A DNA stretch of 64,000 nt from Escherichia coli (GTDB lineage: Bacteria; Pseudomonadota; Gammaproteobacteria; Enterobacterales; Enterobacteriaceae): the NCBI RefSeq assembly GCF_045037415.1, contig NZ_CP173438.1; one strand, given 5' to 3'. Positions within the stretch are counted from its first letter, which is position 1, and every line of letters starts with the position of its first letter. Made by a program: the position numbers and the translations under genes. The notes below the pieces were generated by a model that was not told the DNA's origin, ran no database searches, and saw only the letters and a program-made list of their open reading frames with translations. This document shows, piece after piece, positions 5,423 to 18,542 of the stretch.

Positions 5423-6229
5423 ATGATCGAAACGCTACTTGAAGTGCGTAATTTAAGTAAAACGTTCCGCTACCGGACCGGCTGGTTTCGTCGTCAGACC
5501 GTAGAAGCGGTAAAACCCTTGAGCTTTACGCTACGTGAAGGCCAGACACTGGCGATTATCGGCGAGAATGGTTCGGGTAAATCCACGCTGGCAAAAATGC
5601 TGGCGGGAATGATAGAACCTACCAGCGGCGAGTTATTGATTGACGATCATCCGCTGCATTTTGGCGATTATTCCTTCCGCAGTCAGCGTATTCGCATGAT
5701 TTTTCAGGATCCTTCCACCTCGTTGAATCCCCGTCAACGTATCTCGCAAATTCTGGATTTTCCACTGCGCCTGAACACCGACCTGGAACCGGAACAGCGT
5801 CGCAAACAGATTATTGAAACGATGCGTATGGTTGGGCTGCTACCGGATCACGTCAGTTACTATCCGCATATGTTGGCACCCGGGCAAAAACAGCGTCTGG
5901 GTCTGGCGCGCGCGCTGATATTGCGCCCAAAAGTCATTATTGCCGATGAAGCCCTCGCCTCACTGGATATGTCGATGCGTTCGCAGTTGATTAATCTGAT
6001 GCTGGAGTTACAGGAAAAACAGGGCATTTCGTATATTTATGTTACCCAGCATATCGGAATGATGAAGCACATTAGCGACCAGGTGCTGGTGATGCATCAG
6101 GGCGAGGTTGTCGAGCGAGGCAGCACCGCAGATGTGCTGGCATCGCCGCTGCATGAACTCACCAAACGGCTGATCGCCGGTCATTTTGGCGAGGCATTGA
6201 CGGCGGATGCGTGGCGTAAGGACCGTTAG
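5423..6229 (+). CDS. sapF: ABC transporter ATP-binding protein SapF
   Basis: Walker A motif GENGSGKST; 268 aa; last gene of the sap operon. Confidence 0.9.
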   Translation: MIETLLEVRNLSKTFRYRTGWFRRQTVEAVKPLSFTLREGQTLAIIGENGSGKSTLAKMLAGMIEPTSGELLIDDHPLHFGDYSFRSQRIRMIFQDPSTSLNPRQRISQILDFPLRLNTDLEPEQRRKQIIETMRMVGLLPDHVSYYPHMLAPGQKQRLGLARALILRPKVIIADEALASLDMSMRSQLINLMLELQEKQGISYIYVTQHIGMMKHISDQVLVMHQGEVVERGSTADVLASPLHELTKRLIAGHFGEALTADAWRKDR

Positions 6230-6236
6230 TGTTTTG

Positions 6237-6272
6237 CACCTCATCCTGACAGGCCCCCCTCAGGATGAGGTG
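6237..6272. terminator. Bidirectional hairpin terminator between convergent sapF and the MFS gene
   Basis: Perfect 13-bp inverted repeat cacctcatcctga / tcaggatgaggtg around a C-rich loop. Confidence 0.5.
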
Positions 6273-6276
6273 TTCA

Positions 6277-7440
6277 TTACTTTTGGTTGTCGATTCTGGT
6301 GAGAGCAACCAGCAATGCCAGCGTATAACACACCGTAATTGCCAGACTCATTTTTAACAGTGTTTCTCCGCCAATTCCCGACAATGGCGCGGCTATACCG
6401 CCGAAGACAAACATGCTCATCCCCATCAACGCAGACGCCGTTCCAGATTCCTGCGTCCCTACTGCACTCATAGCCTCTGCCCCGCCAACAGTGCCGATGC
6501 CGCTACAAAATGCGATGGTGAAAAATAATGCCACCAGTGCCGGAATGGGCAATTGTATCCATGCGCATAAGACCGTGAGCAATGCACACAAAATTGCCGC
6601 TATCAGGCCACCTCGCAACAATGTCATCGCGTTAATCCGTCGCGCCAGGCGCGAGAAGATCCATGAAGCAATGATAAGTCCGGTGCCGTTAAGGCCAAAC
6701 ACCAGGCTAAATTGCATTGGACTAAAGCCAAATTCCTTCTGCAACACGAACGACGAAGAGCCGATATATGCAAACAAACCGGCCAGCATAAAACTTTGAA
6801 TCAGGCAAAAGCGCATAAAACGGCGGTTCTGCACCACGCTTCGTCCGGTTAATAGCAATGATGAGCCCCTTTTATTTTCTGGCAAGGTCTCATGAATAAA
6901 TAACAGACAGCCCAGCAACAGTACGGTGCTAATTTCAGCCATTACCCAGAATAAAGTGCGCCAGTCAAAAGTGCTAACAATGTACCCGCCCAGCACTGGC
7001 GACAACACCGGTGCCAGGCCATTCACCGTCATTAACAGCGCAAAAAACTGGGTCAACGTTACTCCCTGATATTTGTCACGAGCAATAGAACGAGAGAGCA
7101 CCGAACCACCCGCCCCCGCGATCCCTTGAATAAAACGCCAGACCACCAGCCAGTAAATATTGTTCGTTGTCGCGCATAAAATGGAAGAAACAATAAACAA
7201 TAGCAACGACAAGATTAACGGACGTTTACGCCCTATTTTGTCGCTCAGAGGGCCAAATAACAGTTGTCCGACGCCAAGACCAATCAGTGATGCGGTCAGG
7301 GTTAATTGCGTTATGGTCGTGGTTGCCGCCAGTTGCTCAGACATCTCCGGCAAAGCCGGCAAATAAAGATCGGTACACATCGGGCCGATACCGGCTAAAA
7401 GACCAAGAATCAATGCCCATGAAAGAGAGACTCTAGCCAT
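6277..7440 (-). CDS. MFS drug efflux transporter, Bcr/CflA (DHA1) type, 387 aa
   Basis: Twelve hydrophobic segments with MFS signatures (GPLSDKIGRKRP-like motif); last gene of the accessory efflux cluster. Confidence 0.75.
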   Translation of the reverse strand: MARVSLSWALILGLLAGIGPMCTDLYLPALPEMSEQLAATTTITQLTLTASLIGLGVGQLLFGPLSDKIGRKRPLILSLLLFIVSSILCATTNNIYWLVVWRFIQGIAGAGGSVLSRSIARDKYQGVTLTQFFALLMTVNGLAPVLSPVLGGYIVSTFDWRTLFWVMAEISTVLLLGCLLFIHETLPENKRGSSLLLTGRSVVQNRRFMRFCLIQSFMLAGLFAYIGSSSFVLQKEFGFSPMQFSLVFGLNGTGLIIASWIFSRLARRINAMTLLRGGLIAAILCALLTVLCAWIQLPIPALVALFFTIAFCSGIGTVGGAEAMSAVGTQESGTASALMGMSMFVFGGIAAPLSGIGGETLLKMSLAITVCYTLALLVALTRIDNQK

Positions 7441-7448
7441 ATTATTCC

Positions 7449-8822
7449 TTACTTGAGTGATGACATACCGCCGCCCAGCGACTGCCAGAGCGTGATTCGG
7501 TTTGTAAAATCAGTCAGTTGCAGTGCCAGCAGCTCCTGCTGTGCGCTCCACAAGCTGCGCTGCGCCGTCAACACGGTCAGGTAATCACCAACACCCGCCT
7601 GATAGCGACGCAAGCCAACATCGACCGTTTGTTGTTCAGCTTTAACATACTGGCGCTGTGCATCCAGTTGCTCTTCAAGCGTGGTCCGCCGCGCCAGTGC
7701 GTTAGCGACATCTTTAAATGCGCTCTGAACGGTTTTTTCATAGGTGGCAATGAGTCCACGCTTTTGTGCTTCTGCGTAACGAAGCTGCGCCAGATTACTT
7801 CCGCCAGTAAACAGCGGTAATGTGACCGATGGCGCAAATGACCAGATCTGCATTCCGTGGCTGAACAACGACGACAACGCGTCACTGCCAACACCGGCAC
7901 TGGCAGTCAGCGAAATCGTCGGGAAAAAGTTAGCCCGCGCCGCGCCAATATCTGCATTGGCGCTCTTCAAATTATGTTCCGCTTCCTGGATATCCGGGCG
8001 ACGCAGCAGAACATCAGATGATACTCCCGCAGGAACCAGACTTATCATTTGTTCCGGCAGGCTTTCCAGTGTTCCCGGTAGCAGATTTTCCGCAAGCGTT
8101 GTACCTGCCAGTAAGTTCAGCGCATTTTTATCCTGCATCACTTGTGTCTGATAGCTGGCAACGCTGGCGCGCGCTTGCTGATAAACACTCATCGCCTCAC
8201 TGACATCTGTCGCTGCCGCCGTGCCAACCTGTTGCTGGCGCTGGATAATTTTCAATGAGTTTTCTGCACTGGCCATCGTTTCTTTTGCCAGGGCCAGGTT
8301 GCTGTTATCAGCCGCCAGTGTCAGCCAGGCGGTGCTGATTTCAGCAATCAGCGTTAAACGAGTGTTCTGGGCTGTAAATTCACTGGCAAGCCAGGTTTCC
8401 CGCGCCGCCCGAGATAAACTCTGATTACGACCAAACAGATCTAACGTATAACTGGACACCGTGCCGTCAGCCTCGGCAGTTGTTCCCGTACCATTCGCCA
8501 GCGAACGGCTGCGGGTCGAACTTAAGGCCGCATTCACCGTCGGAAATAACGACGCATTAGTTTGCCCATAGAGCGCCCGTGCTGAGTCAATATCAGCAAT
8601 CGCTTTTTGCACATCGCGGTTACTGTTCAGTGCAATGGTTACTACCTGCTGCAATCGGGGATCGTGGATCACCTGCTGCCAGTCATGGCTGATTGCCTTC
8701 CCCTGGCCCTGTGCTCCCGGCAAGGTCGCCGGGATTGGGGATTCAGGCGTACTGTAGTGAGGATCGAGCGAGACACATCCCGCACTCAACAACACCAGAA
8801 AAATAAGAGAACGACGCAACAT
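7449..8822 (-). CDS. RND efflux outer membrane factor lipoprotein (NodT/OprM family), 457 aa
   Basis: Lipobox LLSAGC at the N-terminus, OprM/TolC-like repeat organisation, start 3 bp after the RND gene stop. Confidence 0.8.
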   Translation of the reverse strand: MLRRSLIFLVLLSAGCVSLDPHYSTPESPIPATLPGAQGQGKAISHDWQQVIHDPRLQQVVTIALNSNRDVQKAIADIDSARALYGQTNASLFPTVNAALSSTRSRSLANGTGTTAEADGTVSSYTLDLFGRNQSLSRAARETWLASEFTAQNTRLTLIAEISTAWLTLAADNSNLALAKETMASAENSLKIIQRQQQVGTAAATDVSEAMSVYQQARASVASYQTQVMQDKNALNLLAGTTLAENLLPGTLESLPEQMISLVPAGVSSDVLLRRPDIQEAEHNLKSANADIGAARANFFPTISLTASAGVGSDALSSLFSHGMQIWSFAPSVTLPLFTGGSNLAQLRYAEAQKRGLIATYEKTVQSAFKDVANALARRTTLEEQLDAQRQYVKAEQQTVDVGLRRYQAGVGDYLTVLTAQRSLWSAQQELLALQLTDFTNRITLWQSLGGGMSSLK

Positions 8823-8825
8823 AAC

Positions 8826-11800
8826 TTACTCCTGACGGCGCGGTTTACCGGCAAACAAACGTTTCACCAGTACAAAAAACAGAGGAACGAAGAAAATGGC
8901 CAGTAATGTAGCGGTCAGCGTGCCGCCAATAATGCCCGTACCAATGGCGATGCGGCTGTTCGCCCCTGCGCCGGTTGCTATCGCCAGCGGCATTACCCCC
9001 GCAATAAACGCCAGCGAGGTCATGATGATTGGGCGTAAACGAGTCTGCGCCGCGCGTAATGCCGCACGACTCAAGGAATAGCCCTCTGCAACCGCCGCTT
9101 CAGCAAATTCCACAATCAGAATGGCGTTTTTCGACGACAAGCCGATAGTAGTTAATAGCGCTACCTGGAAGTAAACGTCGTTGTTTAAATCACGCATCCA
9201 GGCCGCCAGCGCCGCGCCAAGAAGCCCCAGAGGGATCACCAGAATGACCGAGAACGGGACTGACCAGCTTTCGTACAGTGCTGCAAGGCAGAGGAAAACC
9301 ACCAGAATAGAAACTGCATACAGACTTAATGCCTGACCGCTGGCCAGTTTCTCCTGCAATGACAAACCACTCCAGGCCCAGGTTGTTCCCGCAGGAAGAC
9401 TGTTTGCCAGTTCCTCCATTTTTGTCATTGCATCGCCGGAACTAAAGCCAGTCGCGTTTTCGCCCTGAATTTCATAGGCTGCCGAGCCGTTGTAGCGCAC
9501 CAGTCTTTCCGGTCCATACAGCCAGCGGGTGGTCGCAAAAGCAGAGAATGGTGTCATGGCGTTATCGCTGCCGCGCACAAACCATTTACCTAAGTCTGAC
9601 GGCGCGGAACGAAATTCGCTGTCGCCCTGAATGTAGACTTTTTTCACACGACCACGGTCAATAAAGTCATTCACATAAGTACCGCCCCACGCACTGGACA
9701 GGGTGTCGGTGACATCATTCAAACTCAACCCTAATGACACCGCTTTATTACTATCAATATCTACCTGCAATTGCGGCATTTGTGGCAAATCATTGGCGCG
9801 TACAGAATGTAACTCCGGACTTTGATTCGCTTTTTCTATCAACTGATTACGCATTTGCAGCAGTGTTTCACGATCGGTTCCACCGTTAGCTAACAATTCA
9901 AACGTAAAACCATTGCTTTGGCCCAGCCCATCAACGGCTGGCGGCGTCATCGCAAATACCGTGGCATCACGAATTGTGCCCAGCTCTTTGGTTGCCCGTA
10001 GGGCGATAGCCTGGGCGGTGTTTTCTGCCCCTTTACGTTGAGACCAGTTTTTCAACGAAACAAACGCCATCCCGGTGTTCTGTCCGCTACCGCTAAAACT
10101 GAAACCATCAACGGTAAAGATGACATCGGTATTTGCTTTCTCGTTAATCAGGAACCAGTCAACAATCTGGCGATTCACTTCTGCTGTACGGGCAGCGGTC
10201 GCCCCGGCCGGCAGCGTGTACTGCACCATGATTTCGCCCTGGTCTTCAGTGGGTAAGAAACTGCCCGGCAGTTTCCACATCATCAGGGCCATTCCACCAC
10301 CCAGCACGACATAAAGCCCCATCGTTCGGGCTGCACGGCGCAGGACATAAATTACGCCTCGCTGATATTTATCTTCAGTACGGCGGTAAAAGCGGTTAAA
10401 TGCGCCGAAAAAGCCTTTTTTATGTGGTGGAACATGCTGGAGGACGGAACCGCACAGGGCGGGAGTCAAGGTCAATGCCACCACCACGGAAAGCAGCATT
10501 GCGGAGATGATGGTGATGGAGAACTGACGATAAATTACCCCCGTAGATCCCCCAAAGAAGGCCATCGGCAGGAATACGGCTGACAACACCAGCGCAATGG
10601 CAACCAGTGCGCCAGAAATCTCGCCCATTGATTTTTCCGTGGCTTCACGCGCGGGCAACCCTTCGTCACGCATAATGCGTTCGACGTTCTCTACCACCAC
10701 AATGGCATCGTCCACCAGCAAGCCGATCGCCAGCACCATTGCAAACAACGTCAGGGTATTAATCGAATAGCCAAACAACGCAAGAACGCCGAATGTGCCC
10801 AGCAAAACGACGGGGACAGCTAACGCCGGAATCAGTGTGGCACGCAGGTTTTGCAGGAATAAATACATCACGCAAACCACCAATACGATGGCTTCAAACA
10901 GCGTCTGAATTACGTCCTCTACGGAGATTTTAATAAATTCAGTGCTGTCTTTCGGGTATGCGATGTCGTATCCCTGCGGCATGTTCCGCTGGAATTCGGC
11001 AATCTTATCCTTGACCAGCGTCGCCGTATTCAGCGCATTCGCACCGGGCGAAAGCATTACAGCAACCCCGGCAGACGGGTGACCGTTAAGTTTGCCGATA
11101 GCGGTATAATCTTCACTGCCCATCTCAACGCGAGCCACATCTTTTATACGAACAACTGCGCCGTCTGACTGGCTTTTCACGATAATATTTTTGAACTGAT
11201 CCACCGTCTGCAAGCGAGACTGCGCACGTACCGTTGCGGTCAGTTGCTGAGTATCCGGTGAAGGCAATGCCCCTATTTTCCCGGCAGTAACCTGCACGTT
11301 TTGCGCTTCAATAGCACTTTGCACGTCTGAAGGCATCAGCGAGTAAGACGCCAGTTTGGCCGGGTCAAGCCAGATGCGCATAGCGTATTCCGCGCCAAAG
11401 ACTTGCAGACTCCCCACACCTTCAACACGCGCCAGCGGGTCCTGAACGTTACTGACCAGCCAGTCGGCGATATCCGAACTGGAGGCTTTGTCAGTGGTGT
11501 CATACACGGCAGCAATCAGCAAAAAGTTGCTTTGTGATTTCTCCACCGTAACACCCGTTTGCTGCACTTCGCTGGGTAGGCGCGACTCCGCCTGCTGAAT
11601 TTTATTCTGCACCTGAACCTGTGCAGTATCTGGATCGGTACCTTGTTCAAAGGTCACATTAATACTGACCGAACCATCAGAGCTACTGGTTGAGCTGAAA
11701 TAGAGTAAATTATCAAGCCCAGTGAGTTGTTGCTCGATAACCTGAGTCACGCTGTTCTCCAGCGTTTCGGCAGAAGCACCAGTATAAGTGGCTGAAATTT

Positions 11801-11933
11801 TAATGGTCGGCGGTGCAACGTCAGGATATTGCGCGACGGGCAATGTGCGAATAGCCAGAATCCCTGCCAACATAATCAAAATGGCGATAACCCAGGCAAA
11901 GACCGGGCGGCGAACAAAAAAGCGCGAAAACAT
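8826..11933 (-). CDS. RND multidrug efflux permease (AcrB/MexB HAE1 family), 1035 aa
   Basis: N-terminal region aligns closely by eye with E. coli AcrB (RPVFAWVIAI..MLAG..LPVAQYP..; LIPxxAVPVVLLGTF; GLLVDDAIVVVENVER). Confidence 0.9.
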   Translation of the reverse strand: MFSRFFVRRPVFAWVIAILIMLAGILAIRTLPVAQYPDVAPPTIKISATYTGASAETLENSVTQVIEQQLTGLDNLLYFSSTSSSDGSVSINVTFEQGTDPDTAQVQVQNKIQQAESRLPSEVQQTGVTVEKSQSNFLLIAAVYDTTDKASSSDIADWLVSNVQDPLARVEGVGSLQVFGAEYAMRIWLDPAKLASYSLMPSDVQSAIEAQNVQVTAGKIGALPSPDTQQLTATVRAQSRLQTVDQFKNIIVKSQSDGAVVRIKDVARVEMGSEDYTAIGKLNGHPSAGVAVMLSPGANALNTATLVKDKIAEFQRNMPQGYDIAYPKDSTEFIKISVEDVIQTLFEAIVLVVCVMYLFLQNLRATLIPALAVPVVLLGTFGVLALFGYSINTLTLFAMVLAIGLLVDDAIVVVENVERIMRDEGLPAREATEKSMGEISGALVAIALVLSAVFLPMAFFGGSTGVIYRQFSITIISAMLLSVVVALTLTPALCGSVLQHVPPHKKGFFGAFNRFYRRTEDKYQRGVIYVLRRAARTMGLYVVLGGGMALMMWKLPGSFLPTEDQGEIMVQYTLPAGATAARTAEVNRQIVDWFLINEKANTDVIFTVDGFSFSGSGQNTGMAFVSLKNWSQRKGAENTAQAIALRATKELGTIRDATVFAMTPPAVDGLGQSNGFTFELLANGGTDRETLLQMRNQLIEKANQSPELHSVRANDLPQMPQLQVDIDSNKAVSLGLSLNDVTDTLSSAWGGTYVNDFIDRGRVKKVYIQGDSEFRSAPSDLGKWFVRGSDNAMTPFSAFATTRWLYGPERLVRYNGSAAYEIQGENATGFSSGDAMTKMEELANSLPAGTTWAWSGLSLQEKLASGQALSLYAVSILVVFLCLAALYESWSVPFSVILVIPLGLLGAALAAWMRDLNNDVYFQVALLTTIGLSSKNAILIVEFAEAAVAEGYSLSRAALRAAQTRLRPIIMTSLAFIAGVMPLAIATGAGANSRIAIGTGIIGGTLTATLLAIFFVPLFFVLVKRLFAGKPRRQE

Positions 11934-13053
11934 CAGGCGTTGCCTCCATTAGCCTGAACTTCAACAGCCTTGACGGTCTGCCCTGAAGTGACTTTGGCAG
12001 AACCTTCAACAATCAGTCGGTCGCCGTTGTGCAGGCCGTTCAGCACCAGCCATTTATCACCATACGTTTCTCCCGTTTCGAGCGTTCGCTGCTCTACTTT
12101 ATTGTCTTTATTCACCACCAGCGCAGTTGCATTGCCTTTAGCATCGCGCGTAACGCCCTGTTGAGGCGCGAGAATAGCGTTTTCCATCACGCCTTCATCG
12201 ACACGAGCGCGAACAAACATTCCCGGTAATAACTGCTGTTGTGGATTGGGGAAAATTGCCCGTAATATCACCGAACCGGTAGACTCATCCACCGCGACTT
12301 CGGTGAGTTCCAGACGCCCTTTTTCGCTGTAGGTTGTGCCATCTTCCAGAATAAGTGAGACGCTCATGGTGTCACTGTTGGTCGCCAGTGACTGTTTACG
12401 CAGACGTAATAAATCGACACTGGAGCGAGTGAGGTCGACATACATTGTATCCAGACCACGAATAGTCGTTAACGCTGTATCCTGCGACGCGGTCACCAGT
12501 GCGCCAGGGGTTACCGACGAAATACCAATACGCCCCGAAATCGGTGCGGTTACCGTGGTCCAGTCAAGATTAATGCGCGCAGTTTCCAGTGCGGCTTTTT
12601 TCGCCTCTACACTGGCTTTATCTTGTGCACAGGTAGACTGAGCATCATCAGCATCCTGTTGTGAAACACCATTCTCTTTCACCAGTCGGGCATAACGCTG
12701 CGCTTTCTGGCAATCGGCTTTTACCAGTGCCTGTGCTTGTTGTAATGCTGCCCGGGCTTCATTCCATGCAGCCTGATAACTGGCCGCATCAATCTGGTAG
12801 AGAGGCTGTCCAGCCTTGACCAGATCACCTTCCTTAAATAAGCGTTTCTGGATAATTCCCCCAACCTGCGGACGTACTTCAGCACTGAGCGCAGCACTGG
12901 TGCGTCCGGTTAATTCACTGACTACCGAAACCGGTTGAGATTTGAGCGTAACAACGCCGACTTCTGTTTCTGACGGGGATGAATTGTTACTTTGCGTATT
13001 ATCACAACCCGATAAGAGCAGCATTGCCACTACAGATGTTGCTATATACTTCA
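11933..13053 (-). CDS. RND efflux periplasmic adaptor (membrane fusion protein, AcrA/MexA family) lipoprotein
   Basis: Start chosen at MKYIATS with GGAG Shine-Dalgarno upstream (ORF track extends to 13087); lipobox LLLSGC; stop overlaps the RND start. Confidence 0.8.
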
Positions 13054-13080
13054 TTATTTTCTCCAGGGTGAGAAATACCC

Positions 13081-13153
13081 TCCTCATTGAAATTAATGAG
13101 GATATGTCAGGGATATTCAGTTATAACGAACCCGCATCGCGAAATGAATTTCG
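13081..13153. promoter_or_regulatory. Candidate operator region upstream of the efflux operon: two perfect 7-bp-arm palindromes (CCTCATT-N6-AATGAGG at 13081-13100; GCGAAAT-N2-ATTTCGC at 13138-13153)
   Basis: Palindromes directly seen between the TetR gene and the adaptor gene start; a TetR-type operator is inferred. Confidence 0.3.
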
Positions 13154-13163
13154 CAATGAAATA

Positions 13164-13181
13164 AGGGGGATTAATATCCCC
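13164..13181 (-). terminator. Hairpin GGGGGAT-taat-ATCCCCC downstream of the TetR gene
   Basis: Perfect inverted repeat followed by a T-rich stretch on the minus strand. Confidence 0.3.
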
Positions 13182-13202
13182 CGCTATTGGTTAATTCTGT
13201 TC

Positions 13203-13769
13203 TTATTTATTTATCAACATACTAACAATATCCTGATATATTTCCTGCAGATGTTGTGGATCGCTTTTTTGCGGTGTTAAACGACGATAAACCGTACCTT
13301 CCATCATGGTAGCAAACACTTCAACGCAGCAACGAATGTGCTCGTCGCTAAGATGGGGATGCATTCTTTTCATATGTGCACAACCGTTAGCGAACATTCT
13401 GGCGTCAGCTTCTTCAAGCATTGCCATAACCCGCGGGTTGCGTGTGGCTTCTGCAGCCACTTCCAGCATCAGCGCGTCGTCGTCCTCATTTAAGGATTTA
13501 CGCAAGGCAAGGACTTCCGGGAAGTGATCGGTACGCGCGTCAATGTCCATTTGGGCAATACGAAAGTCGATGATACGGCGAACCATCTCTTCAATAATGG
13601 CGTCTTTGTTGGCGAAGTAACGATATATCTGACCCACGCTAAGCTGAGCTTCGCTGGCAATTTGCGACATACTGGCGGCATGAAATCCGCAGCGACGAAA
13701 ACACCGACGGGCGGCGTTAATGATTTCATCCTGACGCTGTTTGTGGCGTATCTCCAGCTTGCTGGTCAT
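13203..13769 (-). CDS. TetR/AcrR family transcriptional regulator, probable regulator of the adjacent efflux operon
   Basis: N-terminal helix-turn-helix signature (ASMSQIASEAQLSVGQIYRYFANKDAI); start placed at MTSKLE with AGGAG upstream (ORF track extends to 13868). Confidence 0.75.
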   Translation of the reverse strand: MTSKLEIRHKQRQDEIINAARRCFRRCGFHAASMSQIASEAQLSVGQIYRYFANKDAIIEEMVRRIIDFRIAQMDIDARTDHFPEVLALRKSLNEDDDALMLEVAAEATRNPRVMAMLEEADARMFANGCAHMKRMHPHLSDEHIRCCVEVFATMMEGTVYRRLTPQKSDPQHLQEIYQDIVSMLINK

Positions 13770-14246
13770 TTCTGTCTCCTGGCCTATCACTTGGTGAGAA
13801 TGATCATTCTCATTTTTGCTAATTATACGTTTCTCCAAAGTAATGGAAAGTATTTTTATCTTATTCATGATGCATATTCTGATAATGAAGAGATTGTGGA
13901 GATTCTGTGAAGATAGTTGACAATATTAAGTTGGAGTCAATTCATCAGAAAGACAGCGACTTGTTGTCGCCAGTTCTGTTTTCATCATTAAACTTATAGG
14001 AGCTAATACGAATAGTTTCAAAGTCAGATTCTATAAGATATTTCCCCAACCTCCCCCTTGCAGGCGTCAGGAGTAGATAACGCAAAATGCTCTGTACCGC
14101 AGCTTCTCTCCGCTACAGAAAGCGCAACTATAGCCACCCACAGCCAGGTTGATTATAATAACCGTTTATCAGTTCGTACTGTTTACTAAAACGACGAATC
14201 GCCTGATTTTCAGGCACAACAAGCATCAACAATAAGGATTAAAGCT

Positions 14247-15035
14247 ATGGGTTTTCTTTCCGGTAAGCGCATTCTGGTAACCGGTGTTGCCAGCAAACTG
14301 TCCATCGCCTACGGTATCGCTCAGGCGATGCACCGCGAAGGAGCTGAACTGGCATTCACCTACCAGAACGACAAACTGAAAGGCCGCGTAGAAGAATTTG
14401 CCGCTCAATTGGGTTCTGACATCGTTCTGCAGTGCGATGTTGCCGAAGATACCAGCATCGACACCATGTTCGCTGAACTGGGGAAAGTTTGGCCGAAATT
14501 TGACGGTTTCGTACACTCTATTGGTTTTGCACCTGGCGATCAGCTGGATGGTGACTATGTTAACGCCGTTACTCGTGAAGGCTTCAAAATTGCCCACGAC
14601 ATCAGCTCCTACAGCTTCGTTGCAATGGCAAAAGCTTGCCGCTCCATGCTGAATCCGGGTTCTGCCCTGCTGACCCTTTCCTACCTTGGCGCTGAGCGCG
14701 CTATCCCGAATTACAACGTTATGGGTCTGGCAAAAGCGTCTCTGGAAGCGAACGTGCGCTATATGGCGAACGCGATGGGTCCGGAAGGTGTGCGTGTTAA
14801 CGCCATCTCTGCTGGTCCGATCCGTACTCTGGCGGCTTCCGGTATCAAAGACTTCCGCAAAATGCTGGCTCATTGCGAAGCCGTTACCCCGATTCGCCGT
14901 ACCGTTACTATTGAAGATGTGGGTAACTCCGCGGCATTCCTGTGCTCCGATCTCTCTGCCGGTATCTCCGGTGAAGTGGTCCACGTTGACGGCGGTTTCA
15001 GCATCGCTGCAATGAACGAACTCGAACTGAAATAA
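14247..15035 (+). CDS. fabI: Enoyl-ACP reductase (NADH) FabI
   Basis: 262-aa ORF recognised as E. coli FabI ([28 protein letters not shown]...). Confidence 0.95.
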
Positions 15036-15179
15036 TCGTTCTGTTGGTAAATATTGGGCGGCGTTCTGCCGCCCGTTATCTCTGTTATACCTTTCTGATA
15101 TTTGTTATCGCCGATCCGTCTTTCTCCCCTTCCCGCCTTGCGTCAGGATAACGATTTCCTTTACGACCAAGGAGCGCCC

Positions 15180-16307
15180 ATGGAACAACGCCACATCACC
15201 GGCAAAAGCCACTGGTATCATGAAACGCAATCCAGTACTGCGGAGTATGACGTTCTGCCTCTGGTCCCGGAAGCCGCAAAGGTCAGCGATCCCTTTCTGC
15301 TCGACGTGATCCTTGATGAAGAAACGCTGGCCCCCTTCCTTTCATGGCTGGTCCCTGCGCGCGTTCTTGCAGTGGAGTTGTTCCCTGACCCGCTTACCGT
15401 GACTCGTTCACAGACCTTCACCGCTTATGAACGCTTGTCGACGGCCCTGACGGTTGCTCAGGTTTGCGGCGTCCAACGGTTATGTAACTACTATTCTGCG
15501 CGACTTACGCCGCTCCCCGGGCCTGATTCCTCCAGGGAAAGTAATCATCGGTTGGCACAAATCACGCAATATGCCCGCCAACTGGCTAGCTCGCCTTCTA
15601 TTATCGACAACCGATCGCGCCAGCATCTGAATGACGTTGGTCTTACTGTCTGTGACTGTGTGATCATTAACCAAATCATTGGTTTTATTGGCTTTCAGGC
15701 GCGGACCATTGCGACATTTCAGGCTTATCTCGGGCATCCAGTACGCTGGTTACCCGGGCTGGAGATACAAAACTACGCCGACGCGTCACTGTTTGCTGAT
15801 GAATCATTACGCTGGCGAAGCAGCTATGAGGTGGAAAAACTCCCTGAAGAGCACACAAAAAGTTCAACTGCAGAACTTTGCCAACTGGCCAACACACTCT
15901 CTCTCCACCCTATTTCACTTTCCCTTCTCGAAAAGTTGTTAAACAGCACACGGGTCAATACACAGCCGGATAATCAGCTTGCGGCGTTGTTATGCGCGCG
16001 GATAAATGGCAGTCCTGCTTGTTTTGCCGCCTGTATGAATTCATCAAATGAATATAAAAAAATCAGCCCCCTTCTGCGCAAGGGCGAAAATGAAATTAAC
16101 CGATGGGCTGACCGTCATTCTGTTGAGCGCGCTACCGTTCAGGCGATACAATGGCTGACCCGAGCACCCGATCGCTTTAGCGCCGCCCAGTTCAGCCCAT
16201 TACTCGAACACGAAAAATCATCAACGCAGATTATTAATCTGCTAGTATGGAGCGGGCTGTGTGGCTGGATAAATCGCTTAAAAATCGCGTTGGGTGAGAC
16301 ATATTAA
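15180..16307 (+). CDS. yciW: YciW, predicted oxidoreductase-family protein
   Basis: ORF between fabI and rnb as in K-12; start placed at the internal Met (MEQRH); the longest ORF starts at 15102. Confidence 0.7.
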
Positions 16308-18350: not shown

Positions 18351-18542
18351 TCCCCGCTCAACCTTCGTCATATCCCGGCAGATTTTTAACTGACTTTCGT
18401 TTGAAAACTGGCGTTTTTCCAAAACTGGATTACAAATAAATATATAAAAAAACAATGTGTTTAGCCGCCGTTAATTTCATGTAAGTCATGTTGTTCCTTT
18501 TATTTAACTGCGGACTCCGCTGTTAACCGGAGGATATGCATC

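Follow-up and report, generated by a model that had tools for sequence, protein, structure and literature searches.

In Escherichia coli K-12 the small gene ycjD (354 bp) lies between sapF and fabI, in the order sapF-ycjD-fabI. The DNA considered here is a 64-kb stretch of an E. coli chromosome, referred to below as the window, and its initial annotation, which described the K-12 arrangement correctly, pointed out that nothing of the size of ycjD precedes fabI in it. Two explanations were offered, namely that the insertion of an island displaced or deleted ycjD, or that this lineage never had the gene. The question raised by the locus is thus what stands between sapF and fabI in such strains, and which of the two alternative arrangements is the older one.

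Our analysis revealed that the window derives from an E. coli of the type that bears the efflux operon eefRABCD on its chromosome (the eef type). This locus has already been published (Pugh et al., Microb Genom 2026, PMC12817139; bioRxiv 10.1101/2024.08.01.606150), and the sequence upstream of fabI is an ordinary divergent promoter region of the published operon. We are highly confident in the overall reading that is developed below, i.e. that the window is of the eef type with a 477-bp divergent regulatory region upstream of fabI, that ycjD and eef are alternatives, and that eef is the older occupant, which was replaced by ycjD in phylogroups A, B1 and C.

Gene Content Between sapF and fabI

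The space between sapF and fabI is filled by five co-oriented genes in the order eefR-eefA-eefB-eefC-eefD, all on the minus strand (Table 1); the names of eefD and of the whole operon, eefRABCD, are those given in PMC12817139. All four transport proteins pass their NCBIfam cut-offs (TIGR01730, TIGR00915, TIGR01845, and TIGR00710), and the product of eefR exhibits TetR-type similarity with NCBIfam equivalog matches that are all below the cut-offs. The longest ORF of eefA extends to 13087, beyond the RefSeq start at 13054. Regarding the flanks, sapF shares 98.4% nucleotide identity with its K-12 counterpart, and fabI is followed by yciW, rnb and pdeR, the same genes as in K-12. The features of the eef type were found together in the window: the five-gene set, its location between sapF and fabI, the operator motif upstream of it and the absence of ycjD. 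Furthermore, the region 13770-14246 is 100% identical in strain SK1144 (NZ_AP018784.2) and several other strains.

Table 1. Features of the sapF-fabI locus in the window, with insertions found at the corresponding site in other genera.
Feature	Position	Strand	Evidence or remarks
sapF	5423..6229	+	Conserved left flank; RefSeq annotation of the identical SK1144 region
Hairpin CACCTCATCCTGA-loop-TCAGGATGAGGTG, between convergent sapF and eefD	6237..6272		Folds at -28 kcal/mol on both strands
eefD, MFS efflux transporter (Bcr/CflA family)	6277..7440	-	RefSeq; TIGR00710, 279 bits, above cut-off
eefC, outer-membrane factor	7449..8822	-	RefSeq; TIGR01845, 374 bits
eefB, RND permease	8826..11933	-	RefSeq; TIGR00915, 1554 bits
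eefA, periplasmic adaptor	11933..13054	-	RefSeq start; TIGR01730, 273 bits
eefR, TetR-family autorepressor, 188 aa	13203..13769	-	RefSeq; other assemblies; function in PMC12482432
EefR operator, perfect 18-bp palindrome TGAGAATGATCATTCTCA	13795..13812		Read directly; fits motif TGAGAANNNNNNTTCTCA
Predicted eefR promoter	13822..13849	-	-35 TTTCCA (13849-13844), 16-nt spacer, -10 TATAAT (13827-13822); consensus scan 10/12
Variable non-coding spacer of the eef allele	13935..14117		Poorly conserved; 32-bp and other indels between Escherichia species
fabI promoter (predicted hexamers) and 5' leader block, 123 bp	14124..14246	+	-35 TAGCCA 14131-14136, -10 TATAAT 14154-14159; scan 10/12
fabI	14247..15035	+	Conserved right flank; ORF list, RefSeq
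Citrobacter insertion	sapF-fabI spacer		EAL-domain gene
Pluralibacter insertion	sapF-fabI spacer		Hcp
Enterobacter asburiae insertion	sapF-fabI spacer		Hexapeptide transferase
Insertion in another Enterobacter	sapF-fabI spacer		Glycosyltransferase
Phytobacter and Superficieibacter insertions	sapF-fabI spacer		Fimbrial genes

RefSeq calls the start of eefR at the ATG at 13769, and the same start is found in independent gene calls; the sequence AGGAGA is located 5 nt upstream of it. The initial annotation had used the longest ORF of the regulator, which begins at the ATG at 13868, and had given the distance to fabI as 377 bp. The 99-bp extension to 13868 runs through the promoter and the operator of eefR itself. 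In the annotation of eefR the start belongs at 13769 and not at 13868, and the actual gap measures 477 bp (13770-14246), since eefR starts at 13769.

Some additional observations concern the right flank. Compared to K-12, FabI carries a single residue change, Thr for Ala (14460-14468, the "T" in DVAEDTSID), and wherever this exact protein was read (10 of 10 places), its context was of the eef type. The gene yciW (15180-16307) has 78-80% nucleotide and 77-80% amino acid identity to that of E. albertii or of a third Escherichia species (L004), while fabI, rnb and sapF near it have 88-94% nucleotide identity; on these identities, yciW probably evolves unusually fast or has been subject to exchange. 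Its longest ORF (TTG at 15102) over-extends the annotated start. In the rnb-pdeR interval (approximately 18386-18489) the RefSeq record of an identical strain lists a short frameshifted hypothetical pseudogene (L001, 13617-13720).

Absence of ycjD From the Window

The observation that no ORF of the size of ycjD lies upstream of fabI stands. The largest ORFs in 13870-14246 encode 46 aa (13945-14085, minus strand) and 43 aa (14058-14189, plus strand); several ORFs of 30-46 codons are present in the region upstream of fabI, and in no frame does a stretch without stop codons exceed 55 codons. A TBLASTN search of the 64-kb window with K-12 YcjD (117 aa) gave a best E value of 0.66, for a match located in an unrelated part of the sequence, and no meaningful similarity within 13770-14246, and a BLASTN search of the window with ycjD DNA returned only chance matches of 11-21 nt. 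Because both searches found nothing, an intact ycjD with an odd start codon can be excluded. No ORF of about 117 aa that could be assigned to DUF559, the family of YcjD, was found between sapF and fabI. However, 99.45% of shuffled versions of the 477 bp are likewise devoid of a 117-codon ORF. The missing ORF is therefore what is expected by chance, and what truly distinguishes the window is a gene order that differs from that of K-12. A single site is occupied by either ycjD or eefRABCD, and this accounts for the absence of ycjD.

The Regulatory Region Between eefR and fabI

The segment 13870-14246 belongs to a regulatory region of 477 bp from which eefR (minus strand) and fabI (plus strand) diverge. 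Alignment with E. albertii (L003) and L004 distinguishes three zones of conservation. The first, from 13770 to approximately 13935, is conserved and contains the EefR operator immediately downstream of the predicted -10 of eefR, which is itself conserved in the alignment. E. albertii and L004 retain both operator half-sites (TGAGAA and TTCTCA), and the sole difference is a T to C change in the central spacer of L004. EefR has been found to bind the palindrome TGAGAACGATCATTCTCA (motif TGAGAANNNNNNTTCTCA) between fabI and eefR, as demonstrated by EMSA and point mutants, and to repress its own promoter, while mutations in eefR de-repress EefABC and EefD; a 316-bp upstream fragment drives GFP expression and is repressed by EefR (PMC12482432). 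In the window, EefR bound at the operator would accordingly be expected to repress eefR-eefABC-eefD.

The second zone is the variable spacer (Table 1), about 180 bp that evolve rapidly. The spacer proximal to eefR is AT-rich (38.6% GC). The indels that separate the species in the variable spacer are not multiples of three, and the small ORFs located there are for this reason not coding. This zone also contains a small GC-rich hairpin (GCGACTTGTTGTCGC, 13954-13972) with T-runs on both strands, which is conserved in E. albertii, though not in L004; it may insulate the promoters of eefR and fabI from each other, or it may have no role at all.

The third zone (14118-14246) is nearly invariant. The fabI block within it is 97.6% identical to K-12, E. 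albertii and L004, and the -10 of fabI (TAgAAT/TATAAT) is recognisable in other Enterobacterales. The hexamers assigned here to the eefR and fabI promoters are predictions from a consensus scan, and for fabI they differ from those listed for K-12 in a genomic SELEX paper (GTGAAA-17-GAGAAT).

A gene hidden in the 477 bp, be it a decayed ycjD, a ycjD with an unusual start, or a gene for a small protein or RNA, is in our judgment extremely improbable. The ORFs of 30-46 codons that might suggest one sit in the zone with frame-breaking indels between species, and stretches without stop codons are shorter here than after shuffling (55 codons vs. a mean of 64). The hairpin followed by a T-run at 13954-13972 could also be cited in its favor, but an Rfam scan of 13000-14400 with E values up to 1 gave no match and neither ycjD search found any similarity. 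In addition, no gene is called in the 477 bp by RefSeq or in ten other assemblies. All 10 of the 10 independent assemblies with the exact FabI protein, which are all eef-type E. coli, show the 188-aa TetR gene or its slot followed by a gap of about 477 bp.

Junctions of the eef and ycjD Alleles

A BLASTN comparison of the K-12 sapF-fabI region with the window revealed homology in two places only, at 6158-6236, where it covers the 3' end of sapF and 7 nt beyond it, and at 14124-14286. The variable segment has the sapF hairpin as its left edge and the fabI promoter block as its right edge. The hairpin, which reads CACCTCATTCTGACAA...TTGTCAGAATGAGGTG in K-12, is present in the window, K-12, the ycjD-bearing strain KE47, E. 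albertii and L004, and it is thus common to eef-type and ycjD-type alleles. Its stem shows a compensatory C-G to T-A change between the window and K-12, and the hairpin probably functions as a terminator. Given that the hairpin and the fabI promoter are shared, the alleles differ only in the segment between them, which amounts to 7.85 kb of eef DNA in the window (6273-14123) vs. approximately 0.6 kb in K-12. In the latter, the GTG start of ycjD is formed by the last three bases of the 3' arm of the hairpin, and the SELEX-listed ycjD promoter (CTGACA-16-CAGAAT) falls inside the hairpin.

The right junction (14118-14124) falls on the boundary of the fabI promoter, which is under constraint. Since L004, a more distant species that bears eef, loses similarity at the same point, the true right breakpoint cannot be placed exactly. 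Direct or inverted repeats of at least 8 nt were not found at the two junctions; a single 7-mer was detected, as would occur by chance.

The ycjD Cassette of K-12 and Its Variant

YcjD is a DUF559 protein (PF04480; NCBIfam NF007294) with a Vsr-like PD-(D/E)XK nuclease fold. In the K-12 cassette, ycjD is followed by a second DUF559 3' end, which is only partial, and by repeat-like sequence rich in GC. The partial DUF559 end (L002, 4314-4364) encodes 17 aa that are 76% identical to the C-terminus of YcjD; it lies approximately 45 bp downstream of ycjD and is followed by the GC-rich repeat-like sequence "GGGAGAGGGTTAGGGTGAGGGG". Its presence suggests a duplication or a repeated insertion of DUF559 DNA.

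Strain KE47 (L093, NZ_CP141089.1), whose 4.9-Mb chromosome is filed as a plasmid in PLSDB, carries a variant of the cassette. In the KE47 allele the junctions are exactly those of K-12, and the hairpin and the partial DUF559 fragment are present as well; the allele differs by a 12-nt insertion (ACCCTCACCCCA) near the 3' end of ycjD and by further indels downstream. The ycjD allele is not very young, because the K-12 and KE47 alleles differ by approximately 3% plus indels. The identity of the KE47 junctions to those of K-12 favors a single origin of the cassette followed by transfer over several independent losses of eef. A sliding comparison of the KE47 flanks with K-12 and the window showed all three to be about equally distant; no signal of recombination was seen, but a pattern of this kind speaks neither for nor against import of the ycjD allele.

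On this basis one could picture the cassette of about 0.6 kb as a selfish DUF559 (Vsr-like nuclease) element that landed a single time after the hairpin, with precise loss of the 7.85-kb eef segment, and then spread by homologous recombination to the unrelated ST69 and ST182. A single landing fits the identical junctions of K-12 and KE47, but neither the plasmid collection nor the copy number nor the flank scan gave evidence of mobility, and we regard this scenario as very unlikely. The only close copies of ycjD in the plasmid collection, searched for a plasmid-borne source, were on two Mb-sized E. coli chromosomes filed as plasmids, and the remaining matches were below 60% identity, the best of them being 55% in Azospirillum. 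The gene is present nearly always as one copy per genome, at the sapF-fabI locus.

Distribution of the Two Alleles in E. coli

The full 477-bp eef-type spacer was found in 2034 of 5426 complete E. coli genomes, O157:H7 included. Its last 123 bp, i.e. the fabI block, have matches in 5420 of the 5426 genomes, and outside the eef type only this block is matched. DNA similar to ycjD is present in 3378 of the 5426 genomes, with an identical count by megablast and by sensitive blastn, and by sensitive blastn it is absent from all 2048 genomes without the K-12-type allele. The two counts (2034 + 3378) account for 5412 of the 5426 genomes. Together with the published survey (PMC12817139) they indicate that eef and ycjD probably never occur in one genome.

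According to that survey, eefRABCD always lies between sapF and fabI, and it is present in phylogroups B2, D, E, F and G as well as in E. albertii and E. marmotae, while E. fergusonii and E. ruysiae lack it (PMC12817139). Genomes without eef have the 354-nt ycjD annotated in its place, and ycjD is limited to the derived A/B1/C clade and two additional sequence types; the authors propose a loss of eef (PMC12817139). Figure 3 of the same work shows fragments with homology to eef within the K-12 sapF-fabI spacer. These were not reproduced in our analysis: the best local alignment of the K-12 spacer with the 7.9-kb eef segment scored 15, compared to a shuffle mean of 14.6 and maximum of 19, and 31 of the 60 shuffles scored the same or higher. 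Only one arm of the sapF hairpin, which scores 14, is recognisably common to both.

The sapF-fabI Site in Other Species

FabI-anchored loci were compared among 78 listed species other than E. coli; E. fergusonii, E. ruysiae and the E. coli type strain were not among them. Most of the Enterobacterales listed (Kluyvera, Pantoea, Yersinia, Serratia, Photorhabdus and others) possess a bare sapF-fabI spacer of 120-185 bp, and several genera carry insertions (Table 1). The cargo upstream of fabI (L005-L013, L025, L031, locus position 10001) is unrelated between genera and includes wHTH regulators. The sapF-fabI spacer is an insertion hot spot across the Enterobacteriaceae, and eef and ycjD are therefore both derived states. 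A YcjD homologue near fabI was found in none of the 78 loci.

The operon eefRABCD occupies the same site in E. albertii and L004, neither of which has ycjD. The eef genes of the window share 88-95% nucleotide identity with those of E. albertii and L004, and the corresponding values for the core flanks are 88.5 and 91.5% for sapF, 89.5 and 90.4% for rnb, and 93.3 and 94.0% for fabI, respectively.

Which Occupant Is Older

The co-divergence of eef with sapF, fabI and rnb is the pattern expected if the operon descended vertically from an ancestor shared by these Escherichia species. The presence of eef at the same site in E. albertii and L004, its flank-like divergence and its occurrence in phylogroups B2, D, E, F and G indicate that it predates the ycjD allele. 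We thus propose that eef is probably the older Escherichia occupant, inherited vertically, and that it would have given way to the ycjD cassette in the lineage ancestral to phylogroups A, B1 and C; the direction of this replacement is the one suggested by parsimony and by the co-divergence. As eef is older and was later replaced by ycjD elsewhere, the present lineage would have lost nothing: most likely it kept the older eef state and ycjD was never here.

The interpretation given in the initial annotation is accordingly half right. Its suggestion that the lineage never had ycjD is the better supported one, with eef at the same site in E. albertii and L004 and co-diverging with its flanks, and its suggestion that an island displaced or deleted the gene finds no ycjD relic, no marks of a mobile element and no ycjD-like DNA in genomes that are not of the K-12 type. 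For the latter to hold, ycjD would have to be ancestral and a horizontally acquired efflux island would have to have inserted and deleted it. That eef was inserted at some time is certain, because the site is a hot spot and most Enterobacterales have a bare spacer; unrelated cargo is found there in Citrobacter, Pluralibacter, Enterobacter, Phytobacter and Superficieibacter, and EefABC is closer to the Pseudomonas Mex pumps than to its E. coli paralogues (PMC12817139). However, the insertion predates E. coli, as E. albertii and L004 carry the operon at this very site and its divergence, which is at the species level, matches that of the flanking genes. Moreover, the absence of a YcjD homologue beside fabI in the 78 other species and the confinement of ycjD to a derived clade (A/B1/C) and two sequence types (PMC12817139) do not agree with an ancestral ycjD. 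The cluster does not resemble a recent island either. Its GC content of approximately 52% is like that of the flanks (0.48-0.56 across 6277-13200 vs. 0.50-0.57), and divergence out of step with the core was not found either; direct repeats are missing, and no mobility genes were found in the cluster, all five genes encoding efflux components or their regulator. In ATCC 25922 no IS is located within 10 kb (PMC12817139). The displacement of ycjD by an island is largely refuted by these data, and we consider it very unlikely.

It could also be proposed that an ancestor carried ycjD and eef in tandem at the site and that lineages then lost one or the other. Both cassettes are indeed delimited in exactly the same way, by the sapF hairpin on one side and the fabI promoter on the other, and the ycjD allele, judging by the difference between K-12 and KE47, is not very young. 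Nevertheless, the genome counts reveal no tandem arrangement (2034 + 3378 is at most 5426), neither cassette holds a relic of the other, as the local alignment score at shuffle level indicates, and ycjD is lacking in E. albertii and L004. We hold a tandem ancestor to be highly improbable and retain the replacement of an older eef by ycjD.

Implications and Comparison With Known Systems

The significance of these findings beyond correct annotation is little. The K-12 gene order is a poor template for approximately 37% of E. coli, including O157:H7 and, according to PMC12817139, phylogroups B2, D, E, F and G. Eef-type strains carry a seventh RND pump operon at the position of K-12 ycjD. Their fabI, an essential gene and the target of triclosan, has a different upstream neighbor, with an EefR-controlled divergent promoter approximately 330 bp from the fabI -10, and its core promoter is unchanged between the eef type and the K-12 type.

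Compared to the locus described in PMC12817139, the window has the same five genes in the same order, orientation and position between sapF and fabI, ycjD is absent, and nothing material differs. The count of 2034 of 5426 genomes, O157:H7 included, fits the phylogroup distribution reported there. The DUF559 protein YcjD, which in K-12 is encoded at this position on the same strand as sapF and fabI, is wholly absent from the window. With the system studied in PMC12482432 the window shares the palindrome between fabI and eefR beside a predicted sigma-70 promoter. The difference lies in the central spacer, which has a T in the window (TGAGAATGATCATTCTCA) and a C in ATCC 35218 (TGAGAACGATCATTCTCA), the form for which binding was shown; owing to the T, the palindrome of the window is perfect.

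The eefABC genes of Klebsiella aerogenes and K. pneumoniae have the same name and encode the same kind of tripartite RND pump as the E. coli eef operon, but the K. aerogenes operon lacks eefR and eefD, unlike the E. coli eefRABCD. As far as it is cited in PMC12817139, the K. aerogenes operon is silenced by H-NS, and the AT-richness of the eefR-proximal spacer may be set beside this. Finally, the "eef" operons of Enterobacter, with approximately 73% nucleotide identity, are regarded as not orthologous to that of E. coli (PMC12817139).
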